From IMG/VR virus record IMGVR_UViG_3300031237_000251: a DNA stretch of 64,000 bases; one strand, given 5' to 3'. This DNA is from a virus. Positions within the stretch are counted from its first letter, which is position 1; each line of letters begins with the position of its first letter. The translations under genes and the position numbers were made by a program. Under the pieces are notes generated by a model. It made no database searches. It saw nothing but the letters and a program-made list of their open reading frames with translations, and was not told where the DNA came from. Below, in pieces: positions 40,018 to 59,855 of this stretch.

Positions 40018-40024
40018 CGGGCAT

Positions 40025-43610: not shown

Positions 43611-43637
43611 AACGGCGAGGGTATTAGCCTCGCCGTT
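43611..43637. terminator. Terminator downstream of the lysis cassette
   Basis: AACGGCGAGG-GTATTAG-CCTCGCCGTT flanked by A/T runs. Confidence 0.65.
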
Positions 43638-45057: not shown

Positions 45058-45121
45058 GGGGTACAGCCTATGCTGGGGTCGATGATCGGCTCCGCATAGG
45101 AGCCCATGCAGTGCCACGGCG

Positions 45122-45150
45122 GACGCTATGTGACTGCATGGGCCAGACAA
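45122..45150 (-). promoter_or_regulatory. Phage late-promoter motif, copy 6
   Basis: TTGT-CTGGCCCATG-CAGTCACATAGCGTC, upstream of the holin. Confidence 0.7.
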
Positions 45151-45217
45151 CCCTCTTCAACACATTGGGAGAGCCAGCGGGACGACAGCCCCTGATCGCC
45201 GCACCGCTCCCCCGACC

Positions 45218-45439
45218 TCACAGACTGCAGGCCCGGCGGTATCCCTCCCGGCACCAGTTGTCCATCCACCGAACCCTGCGAAGCCCCGGGCGCAACGCCT
45301 CTTCCCAACTCGAACCCCGGTAACGGCGCATGCGGACCGTCTGCCACTTCAGACCTCGCTTCTCAGCCCAATCGATTGCTGTCTTGGTCACCCCACCCAA
45401 GGTCACCAACGTGTTGGTTGCGCAAATCGTGTTACTCAT
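45218..45439 (-). CDS. Small basic HTH-like protein, candidate late regulator
   Basis: GGVTKTAIDWAEKRGLKWQTVRMRRYRGSSWEEAL; last early gene before lysis. Confidence 0.6.
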   Translation of the reverse strand: MSNTICATNTLVTLGGVTKTAIDWAEKRGLKWQTVRMRRYRGSSWEEALRPGLRRVRWMDNWCREGYRRACSL

Positions 45440-45459
45440 CCCCTTCCCCCTCCACAACA

Positions 45460-45909
45460 TCATCGACTCCCAACTTCCAGCACCTGGAGCGGCACGATCC
45501 GGACACGCACACAGGGCGTCTCGGCGTACCGCTTGGAGATATGCGCATCGACTACCTGCACGTCGTCCTTCCAGACCACCCCGTTGAGGCCGTCGAAAAT
45601 GGCCTTGGTCACGTTGTCCGCATCGGGCTTCTTCGCCGGAAGCAGCTCGCCGGCCAGCGCCATGGACTTCCGTTTTTTCGACATGGATTGAGGGATGCTA
45701 AGCAGTATCCGCAGTTCGACCAGGACAGGCCCTTCGAGCAATGCGCGCTCGCCCATGGCCTCCTTGCCTGCCAGGGCAATCAGGCCCTCGTAGTTGGCGG
45801 TTTTCCCCGGCGTGTACATGCGCGCAAAGCCATTCCGAGCACTGACCCTGGGCCGTCCCTTCCCGATGGGCTCGCCAGGAACCACGAAACTGATCGGTGT
45901 CATGCTCAT
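45460..45909 (-). CDS. rusA: RusA-family Holliday junction resolvase
   Basis: VPGEPIGKGRPR...YTP, KKPDADNVTKAIFDGLNGVVWKDD. Confidence 0.9.
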   Translation of the reverse strand: MSMTPISFVVPGEPIGKGRPRVSARNGFARMYTPGKTANYEGLIALAGKEAMGERALLEGPVLVELRILLSIPQSMSKKRKSMALAGELLPAKKPDADNVTKAIFDGLNGVVWKDDVQVVDAHISKRYAETPCVRVRIVPLQVLEVGSR

Positions 45910-46640
45910 ACAGCCCGCACCTCCCGATGGATCCGCAGGCTGGCCAGCAGCTGGTTGCGGGCCTGGACTGCGGTGGCATCGACGAGCCCCTGCCGCTCCA
46001 GGCGCTCACGCATCTTGCGTTCGGCAAACTCGTCAGCCAGCTCGCGAATACTCCTGCCAAGGTCATGCTCGAGGGCACACACAACCGGGGCGTCCAGCGG
46101 CTCGCCATTGGCATAACGGCGAGCCATGGTCAGGTACTGGAATGCAAAGCGCTTGCGCAGACTCTCGTCGGTCAGCTCTCCACGGTGCAGGTCATACAGC
46201 CCAGTCGCAGCTGCTGCGGCCTTCACGACCAAGTGCCTATAGCGCCGTGCCAAGGCCTGATGAAATGCGCTTTCGATATCGGGCAAGCCAATGGCCTCGG
46301 GCTGGACGTTCAAGCACAGCCCTCGGAATTCAGGCGCAGACGGCGGCCATTTGTACGTCAGCGCGACGAGCATGTTCAGTCCGTGCGCAATCTGCCGACC
46401 GTTGATCCCCCTCAGAGCCGAAGCCCAGGCGCTAGCGGGGTCAGCTGATGCGCCAAAACTCGACGTCCAGCGGTGGCCGTAGAGCTCCGTCATCTTCAGC
46501 CATAGGCGCTCCAGCAGCTTGTCGGGCAGCTTCTCGGCGGGCGATGTCGGCTTTGACTCGGTCAACGGCGGAAAGAGAGCCTCGCTGATTAGGTCCCCGA
46601 TGGGCCTGGCTATGCTCGGGTTGTTCGGTTCTTGGTCCAT
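45906..46640 (-). CDS. Phage replication protein P-like (helicase loader)
   Basis: LWLKMTELYGHRWTSSFG...WPPSAPEFRGLC; overlaps the 3' end of the O-like gene. Confidence 0.75.
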   Translation of the reverse strand: MDQEPNNPSIARPIGDLISEALFPPLTESKPTSPAEKLPDKLLERLWLKMTELYGHRWTSSFGASADPASAWASALRGINGRQIAHGLNMLVALTYKWPPSAPEFRGLCLNVQPEAIGLPDIESAFHQALARRYRHLVVKAAAAATGLYDLHRGELTDESLRKRFAFQYLTMARRYANGEPLDAPVVCALEHDLGRSIRELADEFAERKMRERLERQGLVDATAVQARNQLLASLRIHREVRAV

Positions 46641-47406
46641 GGCTTGTGCTCCGACCGGCTTGTTCGTAACGCGTGGCACGCTTGATCGTCTGTGCCAGCT
46701 CGTGCTCCCACTGGCCTTGGGATTGGTGTTTGTCAGGACGGTTGACCCAGTACGACCGAAACTCCATCAGGCGCTCATCGGTCAGGTCGCCTGGGCTGAT
46801 GCCGTTGCGAGTGATCGTTGCCTTCCAGCCTCGCGGACTTGGTGTCCAGTCGTCGTGCATCGGGAAGCGCAGATCGGTTTCAGCTCTCACGCGCGAAGAA
46901 GAAGTAGGAGGATTAGGAGGAAGACCGGAGGTGGGCCCCACCTCTGGCCCCACCTCCGGAAAACCTGCGGCCCCAGCTTCTTCGTCAACTCCGCTGAAAG
47001 CCTGTAAATCCGGGGCTTCTGGCATTTCCTCTAAGGCCCCACCTATGGCCCCTCCTGGTGCCAACCTCTGGCCCCACCTCCCCGAGACGGATTTGTCCGA
47101 CGATGCGAGGGGGAGTCTGAAAACGAAGGGGCTTATCTCCGGGCAAGCGATCAGCATCCCAATCCGAATCAGGTAGTCGATCGCGTAACGGCATTCCTTC
47201 CTGCTTGCCTTATGGGCAGGCCTTCCAGGGGACGCGGGTGTACTCAGGAGCTCTCGAAGCATCTGCTCACTCAGGCGCCTCTCCAGACCAGCGATACCCG
47301 TCTTGAAGTCCATGCAGCGGCGAATGCCGCAATAGACTTTCAGCAGGTGATGCGACTCATCGAAGAGTGCATTCCACTCGGCGTCATTGATCAGGAAGCC
47401 CGGCAC
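46441..47406 (-). CDS. Phage replication initiator O-like, with a DnaT-like domain
   Basis: FPMHDDWTPS...LMEFRSYW...QWEHELAQ; follows cII. Confidence 0.8.
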   Translation of the reverse strand: MPGFLINDAEWNALFDESHHLLKVYCGIRRCMDFKTGIAGLERRLSEQMLRELLSTPASPGRPAHKASRKECRYAIDYLIRIGMLIACPEISPFVFRLPLASSDKSVSGRWGQRLAPGGAIGGALEEMPEAPDLQAFSGVDEEAGAAGFPEVGPEVGPTSGLPPNPPTSSSRVRAETDLRFPMHDDWTPSPRGWKATITRNGISPGDLTDERLMEFRSYWVNRPDKHQSQGQWEHELAQTIKRATRYEQAGRSTSHGPRTEQPEHSQAHRGPNQRGSLSAVDRVKADIARREAARQAAGAPMAEDDGALRPPLDVEFWRIS

Positions 47407-47409
47407 GAA

Positions 47410-47715
47410 TCAGTCCCACCCCAACGGTCCCGGGCGCTTCTTCTCTGCCTGCAGGCCCAGCTCGGCCAGCGTCTTCAGCGCCTGGATGTACTGCGGCGGA
47501 TGGCACTGAACATCGCTCGGAACGATGCGCAGGCCGAGCAGCGCAAGCACCCTGCACCAACGCTCGATCTCACCCTCCTTCCAGCGGCTCACCGTCGACT
47601 CACTCACGCCGATTGCATCGGCCACGGTCTTTTGCCCTACCGATAAAAGTCGCTTTAACGTCAGGGCTTCGGAATCCCGTGCCCTTGCATCCTGCTCGGG
47701 GCTTAATCCGCTCAT
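47410..47715 (-). CDS. cII: CII-family transcriptional activator
   Basis: GQKTVADAIGVSESTVSRWKEG HTH; located after cro. Confidence 0.8.
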   Translation of the reverse strand: MSGLSPEQDARARDSEALTLKRLLSVGQKTVADAIGVSESTVSRWKEGEIERWCRVLALLGLRIVPSDVQCHPPQYIQALKTLAELGLQAEKKRPGPLGWD

Positions 47716-47759
47716 GGTTTGTCTCCTGTGGAGGTGGCGCCAGATGGCGCGGCAAGGGG

Positions 47760-47963
47760 TCAGGCAACTGATTGAGTTGGCTCAGCCTGAGCATCAGGGC
47801 TGATTCCTGGCTTCAGCTTTCCATTCGTGATTTTTTCCAGTTGGTACTGTCGGAGCTCAGGTACCTCCTCCCCCCACTGCCGCACAGCTTCATAAGTGAT
47901 GCCAAGAGCGCGGGCCAGCGCTGGGATGGAGCCGAAGTAATCAATTGCCGTCTGGCGTTTCAT
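47760..47963 (-). CDS. cro: Cro-like repressor
   Basis: MKRQTAIDYFGSIPALARALGITYEAVRQWGEEVPELRQYQLE. Confidence 0.88.
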   Translation of the reverse strand: MKRQTAIDYFGSIPALARALGITYEAVRQWGEEVPELRQYQLEKITNGKLKPGISPDAQAEPTQSVA

Positions 47964-47982
47964 AAAGGATCTCCAATACTCA

Positions 47983-48041
47983 CAAGCCAAATTCAAGCAT
48001 GCTTGTATTTATTAAGCAAGCATGCTTTGCAAGCCTCCTTG
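47983..48041. promoter_or_regulatory. Rightward operator cluster (OR-like)
   Basis: CAAGCATGCTTG (47994-48005), CAAGCATGCTTT (48017-48028), CAAGCCTCCTTG (48030-48041) between divergent cro and cI. Confidence 0.8.
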
Positions 48042-48053
48042 TACATTGAGCCA

Positions 48054-48734
48054 ATGAACATCACTGAACGAATTGAAAAGCTCGTACTCGCTAGAAGGCC
48101 CCAAATCGGGGTCCGCGGCGTAAAGCGGGATATCTCTAAGACCTGCGGTATCAGCTACGAAGCGGTGCGCCAGTGGTTTGCAGGGGATACTGGAAATATC
48201 AAGAACGAGAACCTGCTCGCCATCGCTGCAGGCTATGACACGACTGTTGATTGGCTCCTATCGGGAGAGGGCGAGCCTCCTTTCAGGAGTGCTGAAGAGC
48301 CCAGCAACGTCCTGCCTGTGACTCAACCAGAGCGCCTCTATCGCTACCCAGTTGTCAGCGAAGTGCAGGCCGGCGCGTGGACTGATGCCGTTCAGCCCTA
48401 TGAGCCGGGTGCAGAAGATCAATTTGAACTGACCGATTACCAGGCCCGAGGTCCTGCCTTCTGGCTGAGGGTCAACGGCGACTCGATGACCTCTCTCACG
48501 CCGCCCAGCATTCCAGAGGGCTGCTTCGTGCTGGTCGATACCGGCTTAACCGCACAACCAGGCGATCTGGTGGTCGCCAAGCTTGATACCGAAGAGAAAG
48601 CCACCTTCAAGAAGTTGGTTTCCGATGCTGGCCAGCTCTATCTCAAGCCGCTGAACCCTGCTTATCGAGTGATCCCCATCGACGGAAATTGCCGACTGAT
48701 CGGGGTTGTGAAGGAAGCGAAAATGAAACTATGA
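48054..48734 (+). CDS. cI: CI-like repressor (HTH plus S24 autopeptidase)
   Basis: HTH ISYEAVRQW; cleavage-site-like VQAGAW; VNGDSM and ATFKKL catalytic motifs. Confidence 0.92.
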   Translation: MNITERIEKLVLARRPQIGVRGVKRDISKTCGISYEAVRQWFAGDTGNIKNENLLAIAAGYDTTVDWLLSGEGEPPFRSAEEPSNVLPVTQPERLYRYPVVSEVQAGAWTDAVQPYEPGAEDQFELTDYQARGPAFWLRVNGDSMTSLTPPSIPEGCFVLVDTGLTAQPGDLVVAKLDTEEKATFKKLVSDAGQLYLKPLNPAYRVIPIDGNCRLIGVVKEAKMKL

Positions 48735-48779
48735 GGTGAAAGAGCCCTCTGATGCACGGCTCAGATAGGAGGCACGCAG

Positions 48780-49013
48780 ATGATTAACCACAAAAAGATG
48801 CGCGAAGAGTTCGAAGCTTGGATGGAGCAGCGCTTTGGCGTAAATATCGAAAAAGTGCAGAGCGAATGTGGATCGCTACTTTTCGATGCCTGGCAAGCCT
48901 CCCGTGCAATGCTCGTTATTGAACTGCCAGCCGATGACCTGAGCCTTGAGCGAAGCAACGGAATCGACGAGTGCCGCGATGCCATTGCGGCCGCCGGCAT
49001 TCGTACCACCTGA
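48780..49013 (+). CDS. Small phage hypothetical protein, paralog of 56559-56822
   Basis: KMREEFE.W ... W.ASR....ELP ... AAGIRT shared with 56559. Confidence 0.7.
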   Translation: MINHKKMREEFEAWMEQRFGVNIEKVQSECGSLLFDAWQASRAMLVIELPADDLSLERSNGIDECRDAIAAAGIRTT

Positions 49014-49095
49014 GGCACCTACTTGAACGCCTCCCTTGGATACATCGAGGCAGGCCAGCCCGTATTCGCAGCGCAGCTAGCCTGCCTCGACTGTT

Positions 49096-50754
49096 TTAGA
49101 ACGTCTCCCAGTCCGACTCTGCGGCAACCGGTGCAGCCACCAGTTTGGTCTTCGCAGTAGTCGGCCTCGTTGGAGCAGCAATCCTCATAGATGGGCGATA
49201 CGATTCGCTGCTGCCAACCTTGAAGACTGCAACTGCAGCACGCAACTCTTCCGCCTGCTCAACCAGTGACTGTGATGCAGTCGAAGCCTCCTCGACCAGA
49301 ACAGCATTCTGATGCGTCACCTGATCCAGCTGGACCACGGCCGTATTGATTTGACCAATGCCGGAGCTCTGCTCTTCCGATGCTGCCGCAATCTCTTGCA
49401 TGAGGTCGGTCACGCGCTTCACCGCCTCAACAGCCTCGCCGATCGTGCTACCCGCCTCCTCGACGAGCTTTGAGCCGACACCAACTCGCGATACCGACTC
49501 GTGAATCAGGTCATGAATCTCCTTGGCCGCCGCTGCGCTACGCTGGGCAAGGGTGCGGATCTCTCCAGCCACTACGGCAAAACCGCGTCCATGCTCACCC
49601 GCACGCGCCGCCTCAACGGCTGCATTGAGCGCCAGGATGTTGGTCTGGAACGCAATACCCTCAATCACGCTGATGATTTCGGTCACTTTGGTCGAGCTGT
49701 TCGAGATCCCTTGCATGGTCTCAACGACCCGACCAACCACCTCGCCACCACGCTGCGCGATATCCGAAGCGGAAATGGCTAGCGCGGTCGCCTGCTTCGC
49801 ATTATCGGTATTGTGGTGAACCGTGCTCGTCAGTTCCTCCATACTCGAAGCTGTTTCCTGCAGCGAGGCAGCTTGCTCCTCTGTCCGTTGGGACAGATCG
49901 GTATTGCCATTCGCAATCTGCTCACTTGCAGACGCCACTGCCTCCGCATTCTGGCGAACACTAGACACAACCTTGACCAGGCTCGCCTGCATGTCCTTCA
50001 GGGCTCGCAGCAGTTCGGCAGTCTCATTCTCACCACTGGCATCGAACTGCAGACTCAAATCCCCATTGGCCACCGAGCGCGAGATCTCCACGGCCTTGCT
50101 TAGCGGACGAGTAACGGAGCGGATAATCCACATAGCCATGAATACAGCGATCACCACTGCCGCAATACCACACAGCCAGATGATGGCTTTCATGCTGGCA
50201 ATTTCGCCGAACGCCTGATTCGCAGACTCCTCCATCGCATTGTTCTGAAAAGCGATCAGGTCATCCAGCGTCGCAAGGTAAGCCAGTTGGGCTGGGCGCA
50301 CCTCGCCCAACAACACTCCCTTAGCCTCATTGATCTTTCCATCGACAATCAGGCCAACGAATTTAGCTTCCAATGCCACGAACTTGCGGCTTTTGTCCAC
50401 GGAGTTGGCAAGCAATGCCTTCCCTTTTTCAGTTCGAACTCGCGGCTCAAGCACTCCCCACTGCTCGGTGATGCCCTTGTGGGCCAACTCGACCTGCTTG
50501 AGTTGCTCCCTGATATCCGCAGGGTCATCCATGAGCAGCGTGTTACGCAGGTAACGAGCAATCTGATTTAAACCGTCCTTGGCATTGTTGAGCGCAGCGA
50601 TTTTCACATAACGGTCGTGCACCACCGTGTCGAAGGTGGCGTCTACATGATTGGCCTTGAATAGTGAGACACCGCCCATCAGGATGATCAGTAGTGTCAG
50701 GATGCCAAACCCGAGCTCGAGTCTGGTTGAGATTTTCATGTCGTTGAGATTCAT
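49096..50754 (-). CDS. Tar/Tsr-like methyl-accepting chemotaxis protein with C-terminal pentapeptide DWETF (MCP2)
   Basis: 2 TM, periplasmic helical sensor, HAMP, RTEEQAASLQETASSMEELT methylation helix, QTNILALNAAVEAARAGEHGRGFAVVA tip; ATG 50754 preferred. Confidence 0.93.
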   Translation of the reverse strand: MNLNDMKISTRLELGFGILTLLIILMGGVSLFKANHVDATFDTVVHDRYVKIAALNNAKDGLNQIARYLRNTLLMDDPADIREQLKQVELAHKGITEQWGVLEPRVRTEKGKALLANSVDKSRKFVALEAKFVGLIVDGKINEAKGVLLGEVRPAQLAYLATLDDLIAFQNNAMEESANQAFGEIASMKAIIWLCGIAAVVIAVFMAMWIIRSVTRPLSKAVEISRSVANGDLSLQFDASGENETAELLRALKDMQASLVKVVSSVRQNAEAVASASEQIANGNTDLSQRTEEQAASLQETASSMEELTSTVHHNTDNAKQATALAISASDIAQRGGEVVGRVVETMQGISNSSTKVTEIISVIEGIAFQTNILALNAAVEAARAGEHGRGFAVVAGEIRTLAQRSAAAAKEIHDLIHESVSRVGVGSKLVEEAGSTIGEAVEAVKRVTDLMQEIAAASEEQSSGIGQINTAVVQLDQVTHQNAVLVEEASTASQSLVEQAEELRAAVAVFKVGSSESYRPSMRIAAPTRPTTAKTKLVAAPVAAESDWETF

Positions 50755-50903
50755 ATCAGTCTCATTGGGGAATAACAGTCGATAGCGATCGCCAGCGTCA
50801 CTGGCTCGCCTGAGCTTCTTAAGAAGGGAAAGGTTGTGGGGGTTGATTCCTGCGTCTTGGATCGATGGACACCAAGACCTGAATATCTTTGTTATGCCCG
50901 ACT

Positions 50904-50929
50904 GATCGGCATACATGAGGAATTCTTAA
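50904..50929 (-). promoter_or_regulatory. Sigma28 (FliA)-type promoter for MCP2
   Basis: TTAAG-N14-GCCGATC versus consensus TCAAG-N14-GCCGATA. Confidence 0.65.
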
Positions 50930-51070
50930 GGGCAAAATAGAATTTTTTGCACTAAAAGCGAGCACTACAGCTGCCCCGCTCCAGGGCAGGGCTTCTCGTT
51001 TTCATAACGCCAACATGACGAAACATTCACGCACCTACCCTTAACCTACAAGGGTTGTGCTTTTCCATTT

Positions 51071-51098
51071 AGCCCCGCTCCCCCAGCGGGGCTTTTTA
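51071..51098 (+). terminator. Intrinsic terminator-like hairpin
   Basis: AGCCCCGCT-CCCCC-AGCGGGGCT-TTTT. Confidence 0.6.
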
Positions 51099-51161
51099 TT
51101 TCTACTTTCCCGACCACTCCTTCTGAGATAGCATTTTGCCTCTATCTGCAAGGAGCTCCGC

Positions 51162-51650
51162 ATGGCACGACGCCGCAATCCCGATTCCCTCTCCCACATT
51201 TGCCTACGCCTAACCCTAGCGGCCGGCTTCGGTCTCTTCATGTGGCTCGTAGCCGCGCAGGTCATTACCCGCACGTTCACGACCATGCAGGAAGACATGC
51301 TGGCCAGCAACAGAGCGGCCCAAACGCAGGCCCAGGCGAAGATGAGGGAGGCTCAAGCTCAGCAGGCCGCTCGGCAACATTCGCCCCAGCAGCGCCAGAC
51401 AATGTCCGTGTCTGAGGTGCAGCAGCCCACTGCTCCCAACAAGCCAGGCAGATCCGATGCCCTAAGACAGCAGGTCGAGCAGCAGAGGCTGAAAGATGCG
51501 GCCTGGGAGCAGTTCTACCAAGCGCCGAGGGGGTGTGATGTCTGGAGGAGTGACCAGCACATGGTCCAATGCCAGAACGATATGATGAAGGCTAAGCGTG
51601 AGTTCGAGCATCGCTGGGCTACTGGGGAGTTTGCTCAGCCAAGTTCCTAA
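51162..51650 (+). CDS. Membrane-anchored hypothetical protein
   Basis: N-terminal TM, Gln-rich linker, C-terminal WEQFY...GC...QCQN. Confidence 0.7.
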   Translation: MARRRNPDSLSHICLRLTLAAGFGLFMWLVAAQVITRTFTTMQEDMLASNRAAQTQAQAKMREAQAQQAARQHSPQQRQTMSVSEVQQPTAPNKPGRSDALRQQVEQQRLKDAAWEQFYQAPRGCDVWRSDQHMVQCQNDMMKAKREFEHRWATGEFAQPSS

Positions 51651-51924
51651 TTTCGATGTGAGCTCTCGCCTCCTGCAACTGCGCCCTCAGCCATACCCGC
51701 TCCTGCTCTGCAACCTGCGCCTGTACCTCTCGCAGAAACAACGCGAGGCGTAAGCGCCGCTCCGATAGAGATAGAGAATCCCATCCCCAGAATAGCCACT
51801 CCCCGTCCTGTGCATCCTGATCCTCTGACCCCGAAAGCACAGCAGGGCGCATCACCCTCTCCCAGCAGAGCCCTGTCATAAATAAACCGCAACAACCGAG
51901 AAACAATGAAAAGAGGTCGGTCAT
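51619..51924 (-). CDS. Hypothetical protein
   Basis: N-terminal hydrophobic segment and coiled C-terminus; convergent overlap. Confidence 0.5.
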   Translation of the reverse strand: MTDLFSLFLGCCGLFMTGLCWERVMRPAVLSGSEDQDAQDGEWLFWGWDSLSLSERRLRLALFLREVQAQVAEQERVWLRAQLQEARAHIEIRNLAEQTPQ

Positions 51925-52389
51925 CGCTAGATCGTCCCTGGTAGTGTCATGACTGCAATTTAACCGTGTCTTGTCATATTTCCGACAAATACAGCCTGAA
52001 ATTGTGACAAATCACACATAGATCCAATGGGTAATCACCAGGCAGCCGCCCCTCCAGGCCTCTACTCCATCGGGAAGAGATAGCAAAAAGACCATTACTG
52101 ATTCGTACCTAAAAAGCGGCTGCAGCCCCGTGCCGGGCGTTGATAAATCCGCTGTAGGTCAACTACGGCCTGTCGTGCACGGTATCTGCCGGCCTGTAGA
52201 GCTATGCCTCCATGCGCGTGCCCGGATAGTGCCGAGCCTGCCCACTAACCATTAGGCGAATTGCTACAACACCTGCAAGCGCCCTCAATAGGCCATCCTC
52301 GCGAGCCACGCTAGGGGCTATGAAGCGCCATCCGGGCTCGCGATGTTCATCCGTGCGCCGAACGGCGCTGTTTCACCCCTGGAGATAGC

Positions 52390-53676
52390 ATGACTGAGAA
52401 GAAAGCGCAGTTGATCATCGAAGGCCGGCAGCCGGTCGAGCTTCCAGTCCTGTCTGGCACACTCGGACCAGATGTCATCGATGTGCGGGCTTTATCGAGT
52501 ACGGGATGCTTCACCTACGACCCGGGCTTCATGTCCACCGCCTCCTGCTCGTCGAAGATCACCTACATCGACGGCGACAAGGGCATCCTGCTGCACCGTG
52601 GCTATCCCATCAAGCAGTTGGCCGAGCGTTCTGACTACTTGGAAACATGCTACCTGCTGCTGAACGGCGAACTGCCGGACGCCGCGCAGAAGACAGAATT
52701 CGTCGCAAAAGTGAAAGACCACACGCTGGTCCACGAGCAGATGCGCAGCTTCTTCAACGGGTTCCGCCGCGACGCCCACCCCATGGCTGTACTATGCGGT
52801 GCAGTTGGGGCACTCTCGGCCTTCTACCATGACTCCCTGGACATCACTAATCCGCAGCACCGGGATATTTCCGCGATTCGCCTGATAGCCAAGATGCCAA
52901 CCCTGGTGGCCATGGCCTACAAGTATTCGCATGGCCAACCGATGATGTACCCGGTCAACAGCCTGAGCTATGCAGAAAACTTCCTGCATATGATGTTCAA
53001 TACGCCAGCCCAGTCGAAACCAGTGAGCCCTGTGCTGGCCAGGGCCATGGACCGCATCTTCATCCTGCACGCCGACCACGAGCAAAACGCATCGACTTCC
53101 ACTGTGCGTTTGGCCGGCTCCTCGGGAGCCAATCCGTTCGCCTGTATCGCTGCGGGCATCGCCGCGCTGTGGGGCCCGTCGCATGGTGGCGCTAACGAAG
53201 CCGTGCTGCGGATGCTCAATGAGATCGGCGACGTGAAACACATCGAGCAGTACGTGGCCAAGGCCAAGGACAAGAACGACCCGTTCAAGCTGATGGGATT
53301 CGGTCACCGCGTCTACAAAAACTTCGACCCGCGCGCCAATGTCATGAAGCAGACCTGCGACGAGGTACTTAGCGAGCTAGGCATCAACGACCCGCTGCTG
53401 GAGTTGGCGATGAAGCTGGAGGAGATCGCCCGCCACGACGAATACTTCATCGAGCGCAACCTCTACCCGAACGTCGATTTCTACTCGGGAATCATCCTCA
53501 AGGCAGTCGGGATCCCGACCAACATGTTCACCGCCATATTTGCCCTAGCTCGGACCGCCGGCTGGATCTCGCACTGGAAGGAAATGGTCTCCGGACCGTA
53601 CAAGATTGGCCGCCCGCGCCAGCTGTACACTGGGCACACACAGCGCGATATCCTCCCGCTCGCTCAGCGTCGCTGA
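52390..53676 (+). CDS. gltA: Type II citrate synthase
   Basis: [47 protein letters not shown] and YPNVDFYSG with the catalytic His, His and Asp intact; RBS GGAG. Confidence 0.96.
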
Positions 53677-53758
53677 CTGCTATGGTCGGCAGGGAAAACC
53701 GGTGTTAGGTACGACGCCGGCTTTCGATGAACAGCCCCATTGGGTATGAAGCCCCCAA

Positions 53759-53790
53759 AGAAAAGGCCCCGACTAATGCCGGGGCCTTTC
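53759..53790. terminator. Bidirectional terminator between gltA and the flxA-like gene
   Basis: GAAAAGGCCCCG-ACTAATGC-CGGGGCCTTTC. Confidence 0.75.
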
Positions 53791-53804
53791 TCATTCAAGT
53801 GTCT

Positions 53805-54266
53805 TTAAGCAGTGGCAGATACCATATTGCCCGAGCTGCCAGAGCCTCCGCTCTTCAGTGCTTCGGAGAGCTGGCCGTAGGCCTGCTGTATAGATGCGTT
53901 GAGAGTGACGATCTGCGCCTGCAGCGATGTCTCGGTAATGGTCTTGGTTTGCTCGTCCTGGTTAGACGCCTCGACCTGCTGCAAGCGCTGCTGCAACTCC
54001 TGCAACTGCTTCTGCAGTTTAGCGATCTGCTCCTTGAGTGCTTTGACAGTGGGATCCTGGCTGTCGCTGCTATCGCTGGATTCCGAACTACCCCCGATGC
54101 CGCCTGCTTTGCCACTACCGGCCAGCGTCTGGACGTTAATGGTTGCGCTCGAGTTTGCGCCGCCACTCGGCCCCCGGGAGTTACTGCCCTGGACATTGCT
54201 CACATCGCCGGGGGTCTGGCTGTACGAAGAAACAACTTGGGGCGTTACTGCGGCGATACTCACCAT
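53805..54266 (-). CDS. FlxA-like family protein
   Basis: Ser/Gly-rich N-terminus, coiled coil VKALKEQIAKLQKQLQELQQRL...LQAQIVTLNASI. Confidence 0.65.
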   Translation of the reverse strand: MVSIAAVTPQVVSSYSQTPGDVSNVQGSNSRGPSGGANSSATINVQTLAGSGKAGGIGGSSESSDSSDSQDPTVKALKEQIAKLQKQLQELQQRLQQVEASNQDEQTKTITETSLQAQIVTLNASIQQAYGQLSEALKSGGSGSSGNMVSATA

Positions 54267-54346
54267 GATAGCTACCTACCTGAAAAGAACGGCGGTCTAA
54301 AGCGACCGCTCTACGACGGGCATTGTAAGCCCACTACTACGAATAG

Positions 54347-54372
54347 TATCGGCAGTCATTGGTGCGTCTTGA
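54347..54372 (-). promoter_or_regulatory. Sigma28 (FliA) promoter for the flxA-like gene
   Basis: Exact TCAAG-N14-GCCGATA, 80 nt upstream of the ATG. Confidence 0.8.
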
Positions 54373-54553
54373 GCCACGGAGGGGAAACTAAGCAGCACCC
54401 GCCATCCGGCTCTCGTAGGGAATGCGCAAACCATTATGCAACTGGTGGCTGTTTTTTAGCTGTTCCAGCGCCAGGTCTGATTTAAGTCTATAGGTAAGAT
54501 ACCGCCTGGATTTATCTTACTCGAAGCAACTACTCGGCCATACGAAGCACTAT

Positions 54554-54910
54554 ATGATGAAAAAACCTTCACCGCTGGCGGGCATGATGCTTCTAACAAT
54601 ATCCGCAACTCTTATGGGCGGCCATGCATCTGCATCATCTCTTTGTAGCCATGGCGTCGTGTCGGTAGGCGACTCTTACGAAGCTGTTGAGAAAAAATGC
54701 GGAAAACCTGATCACGAAACGATTCTACAAGTTGCTCAAAACGCCCCATCAAACAGCCAATACCCTCATGCAGCAATCACTCTATGGTTTTACGGTCCTA
54801 AAAATGGTGCCGTAACCCAAATAAGGTTCTCGGATAACCAGGTGATAAACACGATAACCTATCGACCGAACCGAGAAGAAGAGCAAGACCTCTACAAGAT
54901 AGATCCCTGA
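54554..54910 (+). CDS. DUF2845-like secreted protein
   Basis: Signal peptide, C...VSVGDS..AV.KKCGKP...W.YGP.NG. Confidence 0.75.
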   Translation: MMKKPSPLAGMMLLTISATLMGGHASASSLCSHGVVSVGDSYEAVEKKCGKPDHETILQVAQNAPSNSQYPHAAITLWFYGPKNGAVTQIRFSDNQVINTITYRPNREEEQDLYKIDP

Positions 54911-54931
54911 TAACCAACAAGACGATGTCTC

Positions 54932-55237
54932 TTACTCTCGCTCAGTACGTATCTCAACAAGCTCCCCCTCAACAAATCGAAAATACTTATAGGCACCGCC
55001 ATCCGGGCCATAAACCAGCGTCGCCTCACTAACAGCCCCCTTTTTGGGAACGCCATTATTTCTCAATGCAGGCCCCCACTCCTCTCGCCTAGTGGGTTTT
55101 CCACATTTCGCTAAAACCTGATCAATCGAATCTCCTGTACTGACAATCTCTGTTCCGCAGCGAACGGTTGAAGCATAGACCTCGCCCAAAGAGAGCATCA
55201 AAACACTTCCCAAGAGAAAAGAAATCCAGTCTTTCAT
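54932..55237 (-). CDS. DUF2845-like secreted protein (convergent paralog)
   Basis: Signal peptide, RCG..IVSTGDS..QVLAKCGKP...YGPDGG. Confidence 0.78.
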   Translation of the reverse strand: MKDWISFLLGSVLMLSLGEVYASTVRCGTEIVSTGDSIDQVLAKCGKPTRREEWGPALRNNGVPKKGAVSEATLVYGPDGGAYKYFRFVEGELVEIRTERE

Positions 55238-55479
55238 AAATCATTTCACCGACAGTAATTTAAGGATCAGACGGGGGCATTGGATGGCATGATGTTCATC
55301 ATATTGCCCACCGCAGCACCCCGTCATATTGGGGCATGTGTACCCACAAGTCATACTTTGGCCGATTATCTTTGGCAGTCGATCACGAGCACTACACGAT
55401 ACTTCTATCTGACTGAAAAATTTACATGCGACCAAAGGCCACCAGCCTGAGTGCTTGATCTCCCCGCATGCGACAAATA

Positions 55480-55495
55480 CTGTATAGATAAACAG
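55480..55495. promoter_or_regulatory. LexA (SOS) box
   Basis: CTGTATAGATAAACAG = CTGT-N8-ACAG, 18 nt upstream of ATG 55514. Confidence 0.8.
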
Positions 55496-55513
55496 CAGTA
55501 GTAAGGAAGCATC

Positions 55514-55747
55514 ATGGAGACCACTCAGTCCACCTACACCGCCCTCACCCGCCGCGTGCAAACGATCATCGCCACGCCCCGCGCCCAAATTGAGCACCAG
55601 GCGGTGATCTATCGACAGAGTGGTGAGTCGCCCCAGGACTGGGAGCGGCTCCTCGAGGAAATCCGGGACGCCGAAGGCGTGACCATGAGCGCACGCGAGG
55701 ATGGAGGCGTCCATCTGGCTTGGTATGTAGAACCGGCCGATTTCTGA
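55514..55747 (+). CDS. DUF1654-like protein, SOS-regulated
   Basis: YTALTRRVQTIIATPRAQ...DWERLLEEI...GGVHLAW; SOS box upstream and terminator GCCCGC/GCGGGT-T7 downstream. Confidence 0.78.
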   Translation: METTQSTYTALTRRVQTIIATPRAQIEHQAVIYRQSGESPQDWERLLEEIRDAEGVTMSAREDGGVHLAWYVEPADF

Positions 55748-55812
55748 TCCATCCCCTTTCTCCGATCCGAGCCCGCCAAGTGCGGGTTTTTTTCTGTCTC
55801 AAATATTTTTTG

Positions 55813-55867
55813 CAAGCTTGCTTGCACATTAAAAGCAAGCATGCTTTTATAAATACAAGTCTGCTTG
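55813..55867. promoter_or_regulatory. Leftward operator cluster (OL-like) and early promoter
   Basis: CAAGCTTGCTTG (55813-55824), CAAGCATGCTTT (55836-55847), CAAGTCTGCTTG (55856-55867); same consensus as OR. Confidence 0.8.
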
Positions 55868-56142
55868 CACAGCGGCAGGGCCTACCAGGCCCATCGATAA
55901 GGGCAACGAGCCGGCGCCAGAAAGTCCGGTACAGGGGAGGCCTCACCCCGGGTTCGCAGGATAGAGAACCGCATAAAAGAGAGTCGGCAGGCGAGCAGCC
56001 GTGGCCGACTGTCGGGCCCACAGGGCCCCCGAGAAAGCAATCGCCCAGCCGCAGGTGGCGTGTAACAGCGGACAGAGGAAGTTTTCACTGAAGCGCCTTC
56101 ACCGAGGGCGCTTTGGGGAAACAACCACCATCAGGAGTACCA

Positions 56143-56322
56143 ATGAGCGAGTTCAAGAAAGGCCAACCGGTGAAGTTCACCAACCCGAGGGGCCAGGTAC
56201 GGACCGGCAAATATGTCGGCGAGGTTGACCTGGGTCCGGGCCGCGGCAAGGGCGTCTATGCTGAAATCGACATCGAGGGAAAAACACTTCGCACGCGGCC
56301 GAACAAACTGCAGGCCGCCTGA
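56143..56322 (+). CDS. Small SH3-like early phage protein
   Basis: RBS AGGAG; FKKGQPVKF...GKYVGEV. Confidence 0.65.
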   Translation: MSEFKKGQPVKFTNPRGQVRTGKYVGEVDLGPGRGKGVYAEIDIEGKTLRTRPNKLQAA

Positions 56323-56558
56323 TGTAGCAACCCGCCACGGGTTCGGTATGCACGAGCGTTAGCGCTGCAGCCCCATCTCAGCAGAGCAGGTCTCACGGCC
56401 CGGCTCAAAGCGCGCTCGTGTTCGAGTAAACCCGAAGCCAAGGTGACAAGCCTCCTAACGGCCGCTGCGACCGTGGCGACACAGCAGACGACTGGCCGGC
56501 GTAACCGGCCCATTTCTCGAACGCCCAGCCAAGCGCTATTGAGGACGGAGGTATCGAG

Positions 56559-56822
56559 ATGAGCAATAAGATGCGCGAGGAGTTTGAAACCTGGCAGGTC
56601 GAGTCCGGCAGGACCGATCCGTACTGGTTCCAACCTGGCTACTCGTGGAATGAAGCCACCCAGAGCTACTCGATGCACGCCATCCAGGAAGACTGGGCGT
56701 GCTGGAGGGCATCGCGTTCGGCAATTGCGGTGGAACTGCCGCAACCAGCTGAAGACACGACACTCATGGATGCCAACGAGGTTCGCGCCGCCATTCACGC
56801 CGCGGGCATCCGCACTAACTAA
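56559..56822 (+). CDS. Small phage hypothetical protein, paralog of 48780-49013
   Basis: RBS GGAGG; shared motifs with 48780. Confidence 0.7.
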   Translation: MSNKMREEFETWQVESGRTDPYWFQPGYSWNEATQSYSMHAIQEDWACWRASRSAIAVELPQPAEDTTLMDANEVRAAIHAAGIRTN

Positions 56823-56991
56823 CAAATCACGCCCTCTCATGGCTGGAGATCAGCGCCAGCCACCTGCACCCCCTCCCTCTACCGCACCCATCCAGACAGC
56901 CGCTTCCTTCCTACTCACCGCATGGTCCCGCAATACCTGCAATGAGCGGAGGCGGCTGCCTGATGTGTGCCTAAGCCTCGAGGAAATCGAC

Positions 56992-57360
56992 ATGCCCACA
57001 CTAGCCCAGCGCAACGACGCTGCGATGCGCTCTACCCAGCGCACAGCAGATGGCGCCAACCCACCCGATGACAGCGGACGCTCCGGCTACATCGACAACC
57101 AAGTCGAGCTGCTGCTCTCCGGCCACGACGCCGACCATGTCTGGTTCGCCGGCATTCGCGGTGCTGACAACTTCGCAGAAGCCGCTACGGAGGCGCTCTG
57201 GCATGCAGATGCCGACACCGATAACACCATCCTGCGGATACTGATCGCAGTCCGTCGAGGTGACCTGGAAAGAGCACAGAGCCTGGCCGAGCAGTTCGAC
57301 ACCCCGCTGGATGCAGTTGCCCGGAAGATGGTCGTGAACACTACCCGGAGGGCGGCATGA
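56992..57360 (+). CDS. Early phage hypothetical protein
   Basis: RBS GAGG; ATGA chain with the following ORFs. Confidence 0.65.
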   Translation: MPTLAQRNDAAMRSTQRTADGANPPDDSGRSGYIDNQVELLLSGHDADHVWFAGIRGADNFAEAATEALWHADADTDNTILRILIAVRRGDLERAQSLAEQFDTPLDAVARKMVVNTTRRAA

Positions 57361-57614
57361 ACGCATCAGAAATGGAGTGGGCAAAAGCGAAGGCCGACAG
57401 CTTGATCCGGCAGATGATCGATAGGGTTGGCGAATCCATCTGGCCAACTCCCCACTTCTGCGAAGGATTGATCCAGATGGCCTACGCCACGGGCCTGATC
57501 GGAGACGCACGCCTTGGCTACTGGCAGCGCCGGCTGGAGTTGGCGGTAGCCGCCGGCACCGACAGAGCAAGATCAACACCGCAACCATCGAGGAGCGAGC
57601 CGTCGCATGATTGA
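57357..57614 (+). CDS. Early phage hypothetical protein
   Basis: FCEGLIQMAYATGLI motif; overlap chain. Confidence 0.65.
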   Translation: MNASEMEWAKAKADSLIRQMIDRVGESIWPTPHFCEGLIQMAYATGLIGDARLGYWQRRLELAVAAGTDRARSTPQPSRSEPSHD

Positions 57615-57807
57615 TTACCACCAAATCCCGCGTGCAGAGCTGCAGGCGCATCTGCGCTGCCACCGAGGCAACATGCGCTTACTCCGCAAGCATGCCCCGA
57701 AGCATGACACCGCCGCCGCCCGGCGCGCCATCTCCACCCAGTTCAACATCATGATCCAGATCTTCGAGATCGAGGTCCTGCTCGACACCCGGGAGAGCTC
57801 CTCATGA
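57607..57807 (+). CDS. Early phage hypothetical protein
   Basis: Overlap chain, RBS GAGGAG. Confidence 0.55.
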   Translation: MIDYHQIPRAELQAHLRCHRGNMRLLRKHAPKHDTAAARRAISTQFNIMIQIFEIEVLLDTRESSS

Positions 57808-57932
57808 AAACGATCGCTCCAACCTACAAGGATCTCGCCAAAGCCCTGCAATGCCAGGGCTTTTTTCTGGTCGCCGATCTGACCAAGTACCAGCGGGTGG
57901 TGAAGCGCAAGAAGAAGGACAAGGCGGCATGA
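57804..57932 (+). CDS. 42-aa basic hypothetical protein (not in the ORF track)
   Basis: MKTIAPTYKDLAKAL...KRKKKDKAA; ATGA overlaps at both ends. Confidence 0.5.
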   Translation: MKTIAPTYKDLAKALQCQGFFLVADLTKYQRVVKRKKKDKAA

Positions 57933-58048
57933 GCAGTCGTTACCAGCGCGCAAGGCGCTACGCCTACTGGCGCGGCTTCGCCATCGCCCTCTTCGTGTTC
58001 TCCCTTCTCTCCATCCTCGGCGGTCTCGCCGGCCAAATCACCTCCTGA
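57929..58048 (+). CDS. 39-aa single-TM protein
   Basis: MSSRYQRARRYAYWRGFAIALFVFSLLSILGG. Confidence 0.55.
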   Translation: MSSRYQRARRYAYWRGFAIALFVFSLLSILGGLAGQITS

Positions 58049-58061
58049 GGTTATCACCATC

Positions 58062-58856
58062 ATGGAAATCGTAACCGTGCGAGCCAGCTCGCTTGCGGAG
58101 CTATTCGACTGCCCGGCGCGCTGGGAAGCCAAGCATTTGCTCGGCATGCGTAACCCGTCTTCCGGGGCAGCCCTACTCGGCACTGCGGTCCACGCCTCTA
58201 CCGCCCTGTTCGACCAAGCGCAGCTTGATGGCAATCCCATCAACGCCTGCGAGGCCGCTGGGGCTCTGGTCGATGCGCTCTATCACCCGGATCAGGAAGT
58301 GGATTGGGAAGACTCCAGCCCCAAAGCAGTCGAGCCAATTGGTTTGGCATTGCATGCCCGCTACTGCAGCGAGATTGCACCGAAGCAGGACTACATCGGG
58401 ATCGAGGTCGCTTGCGAGCGTCTCGAAATCACCGACATCGGCCTTGCCCTGACGGGAACCACCGACCGGATTCGCCGGGTGGACGGCCAGCTCGGGATTG
58501 CCGATCTCAAGACTGGCGGGCGGGCGGTAGGCAGCGACGGGCATGCCGTCACCCAAGGCCACGGCCCGCAATTGGGGGTGTACGAGTTGCTCGCCGAGTT
58601 CGCCCTTGGCCAGCCGCTCACGGCTCCGGCCCAGATCATCGGCATGCAGACCGGCAAGACGGCCAACAGCCAGAAGGTAGGAATTGGCACCGTCGAGAAT
58701 GCCCGCGCTGCCCTGGTCGGCGATGAAGACTCCCCCGGCCTGCTCCAGCACGCCGCCCGAATCATCCATGGCGGGTCGTTCTACGGAAACCCGAAGTCGG
58801 TGCTGTGCTCAGCCCGCTACTGCCCCCGCTACCAATCCTGCCGCTTCAAGGGCTGA
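58062..58856 (+). CDS. PD-(D/E)XK exonuclease (Cas4/AddB-like, Cys cluster)
   Basis: RASSL...CPARW, GTTDR...IADLKTG, QLGVY, CSARYCPRYQSC. Confidence 0.85.
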   Translation: MEIVTVRASSLAELFDCPARWEAKHLLGMRNPSSGAALLGTAVHASTALFDQAQLDGNPINACEAAGALVDALYHPDQEVDWEDSSPKAVEPIGLALHARYCSEIAPKQDYIGIEVACERLEITDIGLALTGTTDRIRRVDGQLGIADLKTGGRAVGSDGHAVTQGHGPQLGVYELLAEFALGQPLTAPAQIIGMQTGKTANSQKVGIGTVENARAALVGDEDSPGLLQHAARIIHGGSFYGNPKSVLCSARYCPRYQSCRFKG

Positions 58857-58871
58857 CCACAAGGAGCCGAC

Positions 58872-59852: not shown

Positions 59853-59855
59853 CCC

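Follow-up and report, generated by a model that had tools for sequence, protein, structure and literature searches.

In phage lambda and other lambdoid phages, rexA–rexB and sieB-type genes occupy a slot downstream of the repressor gene cI and before the left operator OL. In the prophage state the rexAB-type region is active, and relatives differ in what it contains. Host-derived genes of central metabolism in phages are usually read as auxiliary metabolic genes. Morons, described by Hendrix and colleagues ('The moron comes of age', PMC3594210), are independent units of deviant composition whose presence or absence is polymorphic, and flxA of Escherichia coli lies on the Qin prophage and depends on sigma-F (PMC1935009).

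Here we analysed a 64-kb stretch of virus DNA, referred to throughout as the window, in which a 7.1-kb block fills the cI–OL slot of a prophage of an Azotobacter/Pseudomonas-type bacterium. This type of slot is already known; its filling with host-type genes, among them a chemoreceptor, a divergent citrate synthase and small genes linked to motility or DNA damage, is unusual. We regard the block as probably a mosaic of independently acquired morons in a hypervariable slot, and not a single dedicated system.

An accessory slot between cI and OL

The immunity region contains the following features.

47760–47963, minus strand: cro (PF14549 P22_Cro, E 4e-24), divergent from cI across OR
47994–48041: OR, three operators by motif scan (47994–48005, 48017–48028, 48030–48041)
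48054–48734, plus strand: cI repressor, 226 aa (Pfam HTH_3 and Peptidase_S24, E 4e-26)
48780–49013, plus strand: orf77, a phage-type small gene (phrog_343; Phage_phiTE_015 on precomputed Pfam)
49045–49090: hairpin with a 15-bp stem (inverted repeat) between convergent orf77 and MCP, followed on the plus strand by CTGTTTT
55769–55789, plus strand: intrinsic terminator ahead of OL
55813–55867: OL, three operators by motif scan; the probable PL reads rightward
56143–56322, plus strand: orf59, first early-left gene (phrog_15496)
56559–56822, plus strand: orf87, early-left gene (Phage_phiTE_015, via precomputed Pfam of the L018, L022 and L023 homologues)

Divergent cI and cro genes and operator arrays at both OR and OL, two marks of a lambdoid immunity region, are present. 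OR lies between cro on the minus strand and cI on the plus strand, and the OR–OL pair encloses cI and the block. The two triplets with the operator consensus CAAGCnTGCTT(G/T) proposed by the sequence-only reading are confirmed, and all matches in the 64-kb window fall in these two three-site clusters. That reading's cI start is one base off the ATG at 48054. Across 35 nt the OR and OL arrays are 80% identical. When CAAGCNTGCTTK was searched across the whole window with at most one mismatch, we found 11 strand-hits against 2.5 expected, a number reached in none of 100 shuffles. The same pair of arrays, with OR placed alike relative to cI, occurs in about 30 related loci. The N-terminal domain of cI is shared with the phage family at 70–82%, and its C-terminal S24 domain comes from another lineage. 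A TACATT −10-like hexamer stands only 6 nt before the cI ATG, so the cI mRNA is possibly leaderless. Downstream, orf77 is probably co-transcribed with cI, and the hairpin at 49045–49090 is the probable end of the PRM transcript. orf77 is a paralogue of early-left orf87 (38% identity), whose own protein in the window gave no family when scanned directly against Pfam.

We compared 23 distinct slots of the related phage family, the comparison that the sequence-only reading had called for. All have the OR–cI–slot–OL layout, which supports the placement of the block in the accessory slot of one lambdoid prophage. The related slots span 1.3–5.4 kb, and the block in the window is the largest. Their cargo, oriented as cI in most related phages, is mostly unannotated; the remainder includes defence-like, toxin–antitoxin and SOS genes, with HATPase_c_3 proteins, NA37 with RelA/SpoT (PDC-S33), PDC-S42, DUF6731, DUF7946/7947, a Panacea antitoxin gene, SRAP and UmuDC as named examples. 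This supports the reading of the slot as a place for variable cargo, part of it defence-like. None of the 22 other slots carries a chemoreceptor or citrate synthase gene, which makes this filling unique in the comparison. In contrast to rexAB, the block has a single gene, orf77, that runs with cI; its remaining genes are convergent or form self-contained units with host-type signals, and they encode a chemoreceptor, a TCA enzyme and small proteins of envelope or coiled-coil type. Nor does the cargo show homology to known or candidate defence proteins: PADLOC returned only weak coiled-coil noise, with the FlxA-like protein and MCP matching LmuB/JetC at E > 3e-4.

Cargo genes and their predicted control

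Beyond orf77 the block contains the following features.

49096–50754, minus strand: methyl-accepting chemotaxis protein (MCP), 552 aa (Pfam; phrog_8572, E 3.5e-120)
50905–50929, minus strand: sigma-28 (FliA)-type motif TTAAG-N14-GCCGAT, upstream of MCP and about 150 nt from its start (motif scan)
51071–51093, plus strand: GC-rich hairpin and T-run between MCP and orf162; several assemblies break close by
51162–51650, plus strand: orf162 (ORF), with a hydrophobic N terminus and a Gln-rich middle
51619–51924, minus strand: orf101, a small ORF (86 aa in the gene calls of related contigs)
52390–53676, plus strand: gltA, full-length hexameric-type citrate synthase, 428 aa (Pfam PF00285, E 1e-143)
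53762–53789: hairpin between convergent gltA and the FlxA-like gene, with a T-run on the minus strand, from sequence
53805–54266, minus strand: FlxA-like coiled-coil protein, 153 aa (PF14282; gene calls on L018, L022 and L023)
54348–54372, minus strand: sigma-28-type motif TCAAG-N14-GCCGAT, upstream of the FlxA-like gene and about 80 nt from its start (motif scan)
54554–54910, plus strand: DUF2845 protein a, 118 aa, with a hydrophobic signal-peptide-like N terminus (Pfam)
54932–55237, minus strand: DUF2845 protein b, 101 aa (Pfam)
55480–55495, plus strand: LexA (SOS) box CTGTATAGATAAACAG (CTGT-N8-ACAG motif), 18 nt before the DUF1654 start
55514–55747, plus strand: DUF1654 protein, 77 aa (Pfam)

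Pfam bore out the gene content first read from the letters: MCP, citrate synthase, FlxA-like, two DUF2845 and DUF1654. The MCP has the domains expected of a chemoreceptor, with a 4HB_MCP_1/TarH sensor (E 5e-25), HAMP (E 2e-10) and MCPsignal (E 1e-52), and its C terminus, ...ESDWETF, is an xWxxF pentapeptide. The 64-kb window contains exactly two matches to the sigma-28 motif TnAAG-N14-GCCGAT, where 0.11 are expected: one lies upstream of MCP, the other upstream of the FlxA-like gene. In relatives the hexamers are kept and the spacer varies (for the MCP motif, in L001/L024, L183, L187 and L023). On these motifs, both genes fit the promoter pattern of the sigma-28 (FliA) regulon. The proposal that the cargo has host-sigma promoters of its own is thus borne out for these two genes. 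We found no convincing promoter upstream of gltA, orf162 or DUF2845 a.

The FlxA-like gene has a counterpart in flxA of Qin, a cryptic prophage of E. coli: each is carried by a prophage, stands behind a sigma-28-type promoter signal and encodes a coiled coil, here of the probable FlxA family. It differs in host family and in kind of prophage, and its PF14282 match to a low-complexity coiled coil lies just above threshold (30.7 bits, cut-off 26.3), with 33 other coiled-coil families also matching weakly.

DUF1654 has been associated with resistance to DNA damage and is predicted to be under the control of LexA (bioRxiv 10.1101/072470). The gene in the window has the box of a LexA-regulon member, and 20 of 23 related loci have an equivalent box next to their DUF1654 gene. 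Both gene and box, counted as cargo by the sequence-only reading, are real; judged by their recurrence beside OL in about 20 related phages, they are conserved family backbone instead.

Integrity and recurrence of the block

Portions of the block are contained in metagenome runs of 14 studies. An identical cI was found on 13 contigs from at least eight samples, followed every time by orf77 and then MCP. Copies of gltA at 99–100% identity occur on contigs from at least five samples, always beside the FlxA-like gene, DUF1654, OL and phage exonuclease, RecT, SMC-like and Arc genes. Among the contigs colinear with the window, L184 corresponds to 39779–50756, L183 to 45849–51239, L023 to 49840–58085 and L022 to 51232–58900. 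A prophage of Azotobacter bryophylli shares orf77–MCP at 91–95% amino-acid identity, on a contig that stops just beyond.

These data bear on the reading that the block belongs to the host chromosome, whether joined in by a chimeric assembly or lying between two tandem prophages of the same immunity type. Its genes are of cellular type, its GC content is 0.51–0.59 against 0.62–0.73 in the virion-gene region, and several assemblies end near 51.2 kb. Yet every junction is spanned by independent assemblies, the two arms are complementary halves of a single lambdoid genome without duplicated functions, OR–cI–slot–OL is the family norm, and the chromosomal gltA of the genus is only about 80% identical to the phage gene in DNA. 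We found neither IS ends nor long inverted repeats at the flanks of the block. A chromosomal origin of this kind is extremely unlikely.

Transcription data came from assembled metatranscriptome contigs, from which level, strand and start sites are not derivable. Three RNA libraries gave contigs that map to cI, orf77, MCP, gltA and the FlxA-like gene, although DNA carry-over into these assemblies is possible. Such contigs are absent from 44.7–47.3 kb and almost absent from 57.3–59.3 kb, and they leave out the replication genes and most of the recombination genes; by contrast, a probable DNA library covered 27 of 30 bins. Of the outcomes that the sequence-only reading had named beforehand as refuting it, flanking IS ends and misassembly did not arise, and the RNA-library contigs give no sign of a silent block.

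A phage-borne citrate synthase

The phage GltA has the full-length Citrate_synt domain, the N-terminal extension and the catalytic His/His/Asp of its type, with H265, H306 and D363 retained. By alignment count it is 84% identical to Pseudomonas aeruginosa GltA (PDB 6ZU0; E 2.6e-255, residues 1 to 427 aligned), with which, as with the E. coli enzyme, both hexameric and NADH-regulated, it shares the catalytic triad. Unlike chromosomal GltA, it is phage-borne, lacks an sdh neighbour and sits on a long branch (within the Pseudomonadaceae clade, stem 0.37 substitutions per site), at about twice the usual amino-acid divergence of the family: dN is 0.10–0.13 between phage and family and 0.02–0.08 within the family, with dN/dS about 0.1. 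The host presumably also carries a canonical chromosomal gltA, as do all six nearest-genus genomes.

Met112 and Cys206 of E. coli GltA have been named as important for NADH binding (bioRxiv 10.1101/2022.08.25.505149). The phage enzyme carries M113L and C207A at these positions, with R189V and D191S near by. Leu113 and Ala207 are present in 6/6 phage copies, whereas 128 of 146 cellular homologues have the Met/Cys pair; the Cys is absent in 18 of these homologues, and both positions are altered in just four. Since both named residues are replaced, the phage GltA may escape NADH feedback at TCA entry. We came across no previous description of a phage-encoded enzyme of TCA entry whose allostery is altered.

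The phage citrate synthase matched no PHROG family. Among 50,697 phage records, the closest citrate synthase matches listed come from records of 254 kb that carry gltA and prpC annotations, and the others listed are mostly in short or unannotated records; these matches are unlikely to be genuine phage genes.

Like viral auxiliary metabolic genes of central carbon metabolism, gltA is host-derived and has phage genes on both sides. It could serve mainly lytic growth by sustaining TCA flux in the infected cell, with any expression in the lysogen incidental, which is how such genes are commonly seen; loss of the NADH-site residues would suit an infected cell with disturbed redox state. Unlike those genes, it sits in the part of a temperate phage genome that controls lysogeny. 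Neither the early nor the late operons include it, a 465-nt non-coding stretch precedes it and its neighbours are convergent, and the RNA-library contigs cover it along with cI while leaving the replication genes uncovered. We consider a mainly lytic role improbable.

Probably independent units in one slot

The cargo genes have remained intact, and selection on them is purifying, with dN/dS among phage variants of 0.09–0.11 for MCP, 0.10–0.27 for the FlxA-like gene and 0.02–0.13 for gltA. The block can be divided into cI–orf77, MCP, the FlxA-like gene, two unknown ORFs, gltA, the DUF2845 pair and DUF1654. MCP and the FlxA-like gene each have their own promoter motif and a hairpin (49045–49090 and 53762–53789), as morons do; deviant GC content and presence or absence among close relatives, the latter seen in the DUF2845 pair and in the lack of MCP and gltA in the 22 other slots, also match morons. 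Less usual for morons, several are stacked in one 7.1-kb slot and one is a full-length housekeeping-type enzyme.

The sequence-only reading saw one lysogenic-conversion module that would retune motility and TCA entry. As a coherent, co-adapted system, its chemoreceptor, FlxA-like, DUF2845 and citrate synthase genes would jointly couple the two. Purifying selection on all parts, the sigma-28 wiring common to MCP and the FlxA-like gene, and the equal order of MCP, orf162, orf101, gltA, FlxA-like, DUF2845 and DUF1654 in L023, a contig of a different sample, would suit such a system. The parts nevertheless vary independently. The DUF2845 pair is missing from L018/L019 and from one variant in run X15, and orf162 is replaced or divergent in some phage variants, one of which replaces 51307–51586. 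Both have cellular counterparts in G001: homologues of orf162, and a convergent DUF2845 pair (chromosomal or island) whose b copy is 85% identical in amino acids. The A. bryophylli genome has orf77–MCP, and we found no second gltA in it. Moreover, no sigma-28 motif precedes gltA, the parts are far apart in codon composition (GC3 from 0.43 to 0.78), and mixed gene directions with separate hairpins are the signature of serial insertions. A coherent system is therefore unsupported and, in our view, unlikely.

Under the favoured reading as a mosaic of morons, cI–orf77 would be read from PRM in the lysogen, up to the 49045–49090 hairpin. Host FliA–RNA polymerase would transcribe MCP and the FlxA-like gene at all times when the flagellar regulon is active, so that the lysogen would gain an extra four-helix-bundle chemoreceptor, with a CheR/CheB-tethering-type C terminus, in its arrays. 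The phage gltA would supply a second citrate synthase with its catalytic residues kept, perhaps escaping NADH feedback, and DNA damage would derepress DUF1654 just when the prophage is induced. Plausibly, every unit either brings the lysogen a small benefit of its own or is costless.

More speculatively, and with considerable doubt, this phage lineage of soil and sludge Pseudomonadaceae could reprogram its lysogen through cargo wired into several host global regulons: FliA-driven MCP and FlxA-like genes, an NADH-freed citrate synthase, LexA-controlled DUF1654 and an RsmZ-family RNA. If so, where the lysogen swims and how carbon feeds into its TCA cycle would be measurably changed.

Minor features

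A 252-aa plus-strand ORF overlies the minus-strand FlxA-like gene and was rejected as a shadow. The RsmZ-family RNA lies elsewhere in the prophage and is preceded by a GacA box.

A variable slot between cI and the left operator

The sequence-only reading had described matching operator triplets that bracket cI and a block of host-type genes (48735–55812, 7.1 kb), and these are borne out. CAAGCNTGCTTK with at most one mismatch gave 11 strand-hits over the 64-kb window, where 2.5 were expected (0 of 100 shuffles reached 11), and all of them fell in two clusters of three sites, OR at 47994–48041 and OL at 55813–55867, whose arrays are 80% identical over 35 nt. OR lies between the following two genes:

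47760–47963, minus strand: cro (P22_Cro, E = 4e-24)
ATG at 48054: cI (Peptidase_S24, E = 4e-26, and HTH_3)

The cI ATG is 6 nt past a TACATT hexamer and has no Shine–Dalgarno sequence, which suggests that the PRM transcript may be leaderless, as in lambda. The repressor is a chimera. Its residues 1–80 match a large phage family at 70–82%, which fits the shared operators, and its S24 domain matches another lineage (75% to Azotobacter bryophylli locus L024 and 68% to IMG/VR loci L034 and L035) that is without these operators.

A search of genomes and IMG/VR with cI yielded 49 loci. In most of these the N-terminal domain of cI is 70–82% identical to that of the window and cro is conserved, and the same operator motif clusters about 60 nt ahead of cI and again 1.3–5.4 kb downstream. 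Dropping identical slots and one mis-paired locus left 23 distinct slots including the window, in which the OR-to-OL distance (7.8 kb) is the largest. The other slots hold either no gene or 1–5 genes between cI and DUF1654, nearly all co-directional with cI like rexAB of phage lambda, which has the same slot layout. Most of these cargo genes have no annotation; those with a match encode HATPase_c_3 proteins (about 670 aa), an NA37 and RelA/SpoT pair (PADLOC PDC-S33), PDC-S42, DUF6731, DUF7946/7947, a BRCT protein, a Panacea antitoxin with an upstream 354-aa partner, SRAP and UmuD/UmuC, and the L034 slot has an Endonuclease I gene in addition. None of the related slots carries an MCP or a citrate synthase. 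The proposal of an accessory slot between cI and OL holds across this set, and the content of the slot varies.

Content of the block

Every gene that had been listed between cI and the second operator array is present; the block holds:

48780–49013: orf77, a 77-aa phage-type gene
start at 50754, minus strand: MCP with 4HB_MCP_1, HAMP and MCPsignal domains
51162–51650, plus strand: orf162, no assigned family
51619–51924, minus strand: orf101, no assigned family
52390–53676: citrate synthase gene gltA (E = 1e-143)
53805–54266, minus strand: FlxA-like coiled-coil gene
two convergent DUF2845 genes
55514–55747: DUF1654 gene, preceded by CTGTATAGATAAACAG at 55480–55495 and followed by a terminator

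The GC content of the block is 0.51–0.59, compared with 0.62–0.73 in the virion-gene region, and the 64-kb window contains no tRNAs. Two further open reading frames, on the plus strand at 53727–54485 (252 aa) and on the minus strand at 55241–55714 (157 aa), were set aside as shadows of the FlxA-like gene and DUF1654, respectively; neither has a Pfam match and related contigs are called on the opposite strand. A defence reading of the cargo was rejected after a defence-family search. In the intergenic region of MCP and orf162, two adjacent hairpins lie at 51034–51100 (plus strand), and assemblies tend to break just downstream; an anti-hemB Rfam match there is below threshold (26 bits versus 49.5) and probably due to chance.

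DUF1654 had been counted as SOS-boxed cargo. The gene and its box are present, but both are backbone of the immunity region, because DUF1654 ends nearly all slots and the box recurs in 20 of 23 loci (CTGT-N8-ACAG between DUF1654 and OL). In all slots except that of the window and one other, the gene is the last, on the minus strand, with its start abutting OL; its orientation is reversed in the window and L034/L035, with a terminator after the gene. In Pseudomonas fluorescens, DUF1654 genes confer resistance to cisplatin, and LexA control is predicted for close homologues (bioRxiv 10.1101/072470).

Regulatory signals of the cargo

TnAAG-N14-GCCGAT has exactly two copies in the window (0.11 expected), both on the minus strand. 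One precedes the MCP ATG (50754) by about 150 nt, and the other precedes the ATG of the FlxA-like gene by about 80 nt. A longer MCP reading frame starting at 50916 was excluded because the sigma-28 motif lies downstream of that start. Relatives keep both hexamers and vary in the spacer bases, as would be expected of functional sigma-28 promoters. For the FlxA-like gene there is a direct precedent from the 1990s of a prophage-borne, sigma-28-driven gene, E. coli flxA in the Qin prophage, which is strongly sigma-F dependent and 28-fold down in a fliA deletion (PMC1935009). The cargo had been credited with its own host-sigma promoters; the sigma-28 motifs support this for MCP and the FlxA-like gene, but no promoter was identified for gltA. 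A sigma-70 consensus scan found 1 site against 4.3 expected and is therefore uninformative for gltA, and a TGTGA-N4-TCACA repeat upstream of the gene was rejected as a CRP/Vfr site on account of its spacing.

A probable patchwork in phage DNA

The block looks like a patchwork, and we found no evidence that its parts form the single module that had been proposed. The parts vary independently: 54379–55407, which holds the DUF2845 pair, is missing from related loci L018 and L019 and from a variant in metagenome run X15, and contig L023 has orf162 at 83% identity, whereas in the X15 variant a part of this gene is replaced. GC3 ranges from 0.43 (DUF2845) to 0.78 (gltA), and the genes run in alternating directions, with hairpins at 49045–49090 and 53762–53789 separating convergent neighbours. 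The nearest genome that we compared is almost certainly A. bryophylli KCTC 62195, given identical matches from L024 and L001; the window itself comes from a soil-metagenome organism close to this species. Its prophage matches the virion DNA of the window at 97% and orf77–MCP at 91–95% aa and differs in the N terminus of cI. This genome has no second gltA and carries cellular homologues of orf162 and the DUF2845 pair (62–85% aa); the pair is convergent there too, so it was probably captured as one unit.

Flanking IS ends and misassembly of host chromosome had both been named as findings that would overturn the block. We looked for the former: neither the block nor any of its parts is flanked by a transposase, by IS ends or by inverted repeats of any length; the operator arrays are the sole long repeats, and an IS or transposon origin was rejected. 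Nor does misassembly or an origin in host DNA fit, as colinear contigs of independent assemblies cross every junction of the block at 96–97% identity:

39779–50756: L184
45849–51239: L183
49840–58085: L023
51232–58900: L022

A number of assemblies end near 51.2 kb, in a stretch where orf162 is polymorphic. The exact cI protein was found on 13 contigs from at least 8 samples, always with cro, cII, a lambda-P-like gene, RusA and lysozyme on one flank and orf77 and MCP on the other. Contigs from at least 5 samples carry GltA at 99–100% identity and always continue into the FlxA-like gene, DUF1654, OL and early-left phage genes (PDDEXK exonuclease, RecT or an alternative, SMC-like ATPase and Arc). 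Parts of the block are present in metagenome runs of 14 studies of soil, sludge, wastewater, bioreactors, marine sediment and rice paddy. Megablast of 46000–58000 against 50,697 phage records gave no match, and IMG/VR scans with GltA and MCP found no relatives; a JGI metagenome scan with GltA returned only cellular enzymes (82% or less). Exact-protein look-ups had neither the GltA nor the MCP of the window on record, and near-identical proteins were reached by homology search.

We note that L183 (ena:ERZ24875786 NODE_340) joins window 8585–10566 directly to 40393–45302, with about 30 kb of virion genes missing, including a giant 2965-aa ORF, and a 680-aa fused ORF across the joint. The contig may stem from a defective prophage that has undergone this deletion, or it may be chimeric through misassembly.

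A divergent citrate synthase

The phage GltA is full length and of the hexameric type; residues 1–427 align to PDB 6ZU0 (E = 2.6e-255, 84% identity). After the phage copies, the next-best matches are Pseudomonas and Halopseudomonas enzymes (82–85%), and other families of the order reach at most 76%. A maximum-likelihood tree unites the four phage copies in one clade (support 100) that falls within the Pseudomonadaceae; the stem of this clade measures 0.37 substitutions per site, compared with a median end branch of 0.07. The dN of phage gltA to family members is 0.10–0.13, versus 0.02–0.08 among members, with dN/dS near 0.1, which points to an enzyme that is constrained yet faster-evolving at the protein level.

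The catalytic residues (His265, His306 and Asp363) are invariant, and the phage enzyme differs at only 6 of 246 strongly conserved positions. For NADH binding, a study of the P. aeruginosa enzyme singles out two residues as important, Met112 and Cys206 of E. coli (bioRxiv 10.1101/2022.08.25.505149). All six phage copies have Leu113 and Ala207 at the equivalent positions; Met and Cys are both present in 128 of 146 cellular homologues, and both are changed in only 4. R189V and D191S, near NADH-site residues, are likewise rare changes. It is reasonable to hypothesize that the phage enzyme would have altered NADH feedback, and it poses a simple, testable question: would a GltA that has lost both NADH-site residues be free of feedback at entry to the TCA cycle?

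No PHROG family matches phage GltA. Citrate synthase matches among the 50,697 phage records are probably not true phage genes: the closest lie in 254-kb records that carry gltA and prpC annotations, and of the others listed most are in records that are short or lack annotation. The literature searched held no report of a prophage-borne citrate synthase.

Host-type genes outside the slot

Two further host-type elements lie elsewhere in the prophage:

8073–9578, minus strand: second MCP, 501 aa (MCPsignal, E = 5e-32), at the far end of the late region
43605–43744, minus strand: RsmZ/PrrB-family RNA (Rfam RF00166, 58 bits versus a gathering score of 44, E = 4e-11)

The second MCP has no recognized sensor domain and no strict-form sigma-28 motif upstream. 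The RNA sits between the late genes and the lysis region. It carries about 7 GGA motifs, ends in a terminator and folds with a z-score of −5.6. About 60 nt upstream is a GacA-box-like palindrome (TGTAAG-N6-CCTACA, 43806–43823), unique in the window (0.00 expected). The region is colinear in phage contigs L183 and L184, and no copy of the RNA turned up in a set of seven relatives of the phage. Both elements strengthen the picture of a phage lineage that collects host genes wired to regulons.

Selection and expression

Among phage variants of different samples, dN/dS was 0.09–0.11 for MCP, 0.02–0.13 for gltA, 0.10–0.27 for the FlxA-like gene and 0.14 for orf77. We mapped contigs of four runs on 40001–60000: three RNA libraries (two rice-paddy and one sludge) and a fourth labelled RNA that is probably DNA. 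RNA-library contigs at 95–100% identity lay on cI (48070–48739), orf77, MCP (49096–50756), gltA (52356–53625) and the FlxA-like gene (53881–54176), and in one run also on 56198–56795. They covered nothing of 44670–47337 (replication and late-regulator region) and almost nothing of 57343–59343; the probable-DNA run covered 27 of 30 bins. The DUF2845 bin was empty in all four runs. The contrast in the RNA libraries is what a lysogen would show, as read from contigs that give neither level, strand nor start sites.

Relation to known systems

The slot beside the repressor gene is a known site for genes kept switched on by the prophage. In deviant composition and in presence or absence among relatives, the cargo units of the window fall under the definition of morons (PMC3594210). 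New are the chemoreceptor and divergent TCA-entry enzyme as filling beside a repressor gene, the stacking of cargo to 7.1 kb and its apparent wiring to host regulons. The literature searched held no direct precedent for a prophage-borne chemoreceptor, citrate synthase or RsmZ; for temperate phages of Pseudomonas it mentions chemotaxis genes only once and in passing, as a putative one listed in two P. syringae phages (PMC11256456). Retuned motility and TCA entry would be plausible effects in the lysogen. Annotated slot cargo in this phage family is defence-like, toxin–antitoxin or SOS-related; the conservation of MCP and gltA across samples, purifying selection and host regulon signals suggest that, in Pseudomonadaceae of soil and wastewater, temperate phages may also exchange genes for behaviour and core metabolism. 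Delimited by the operators and SOS-boxed DUF1654, the family slot is a hotspot suited to the systematic harvest of further cargo.

In the same slot, IMG/VR loci L045 (10939–12985) and L052 carry an NA37-like gene followed by one for a RelA/SpoT-domain protein (PADLOC candidate PDC-S33), possibly a nucleotide-pyrophosphokinase defence or toxin pair. The IMG/VR phage L034 has two copies of the Proteo-phage-1 RNA (RF03044) at 2582–2664 and 16315–16394, on opposite strands and at about 64 bits each.
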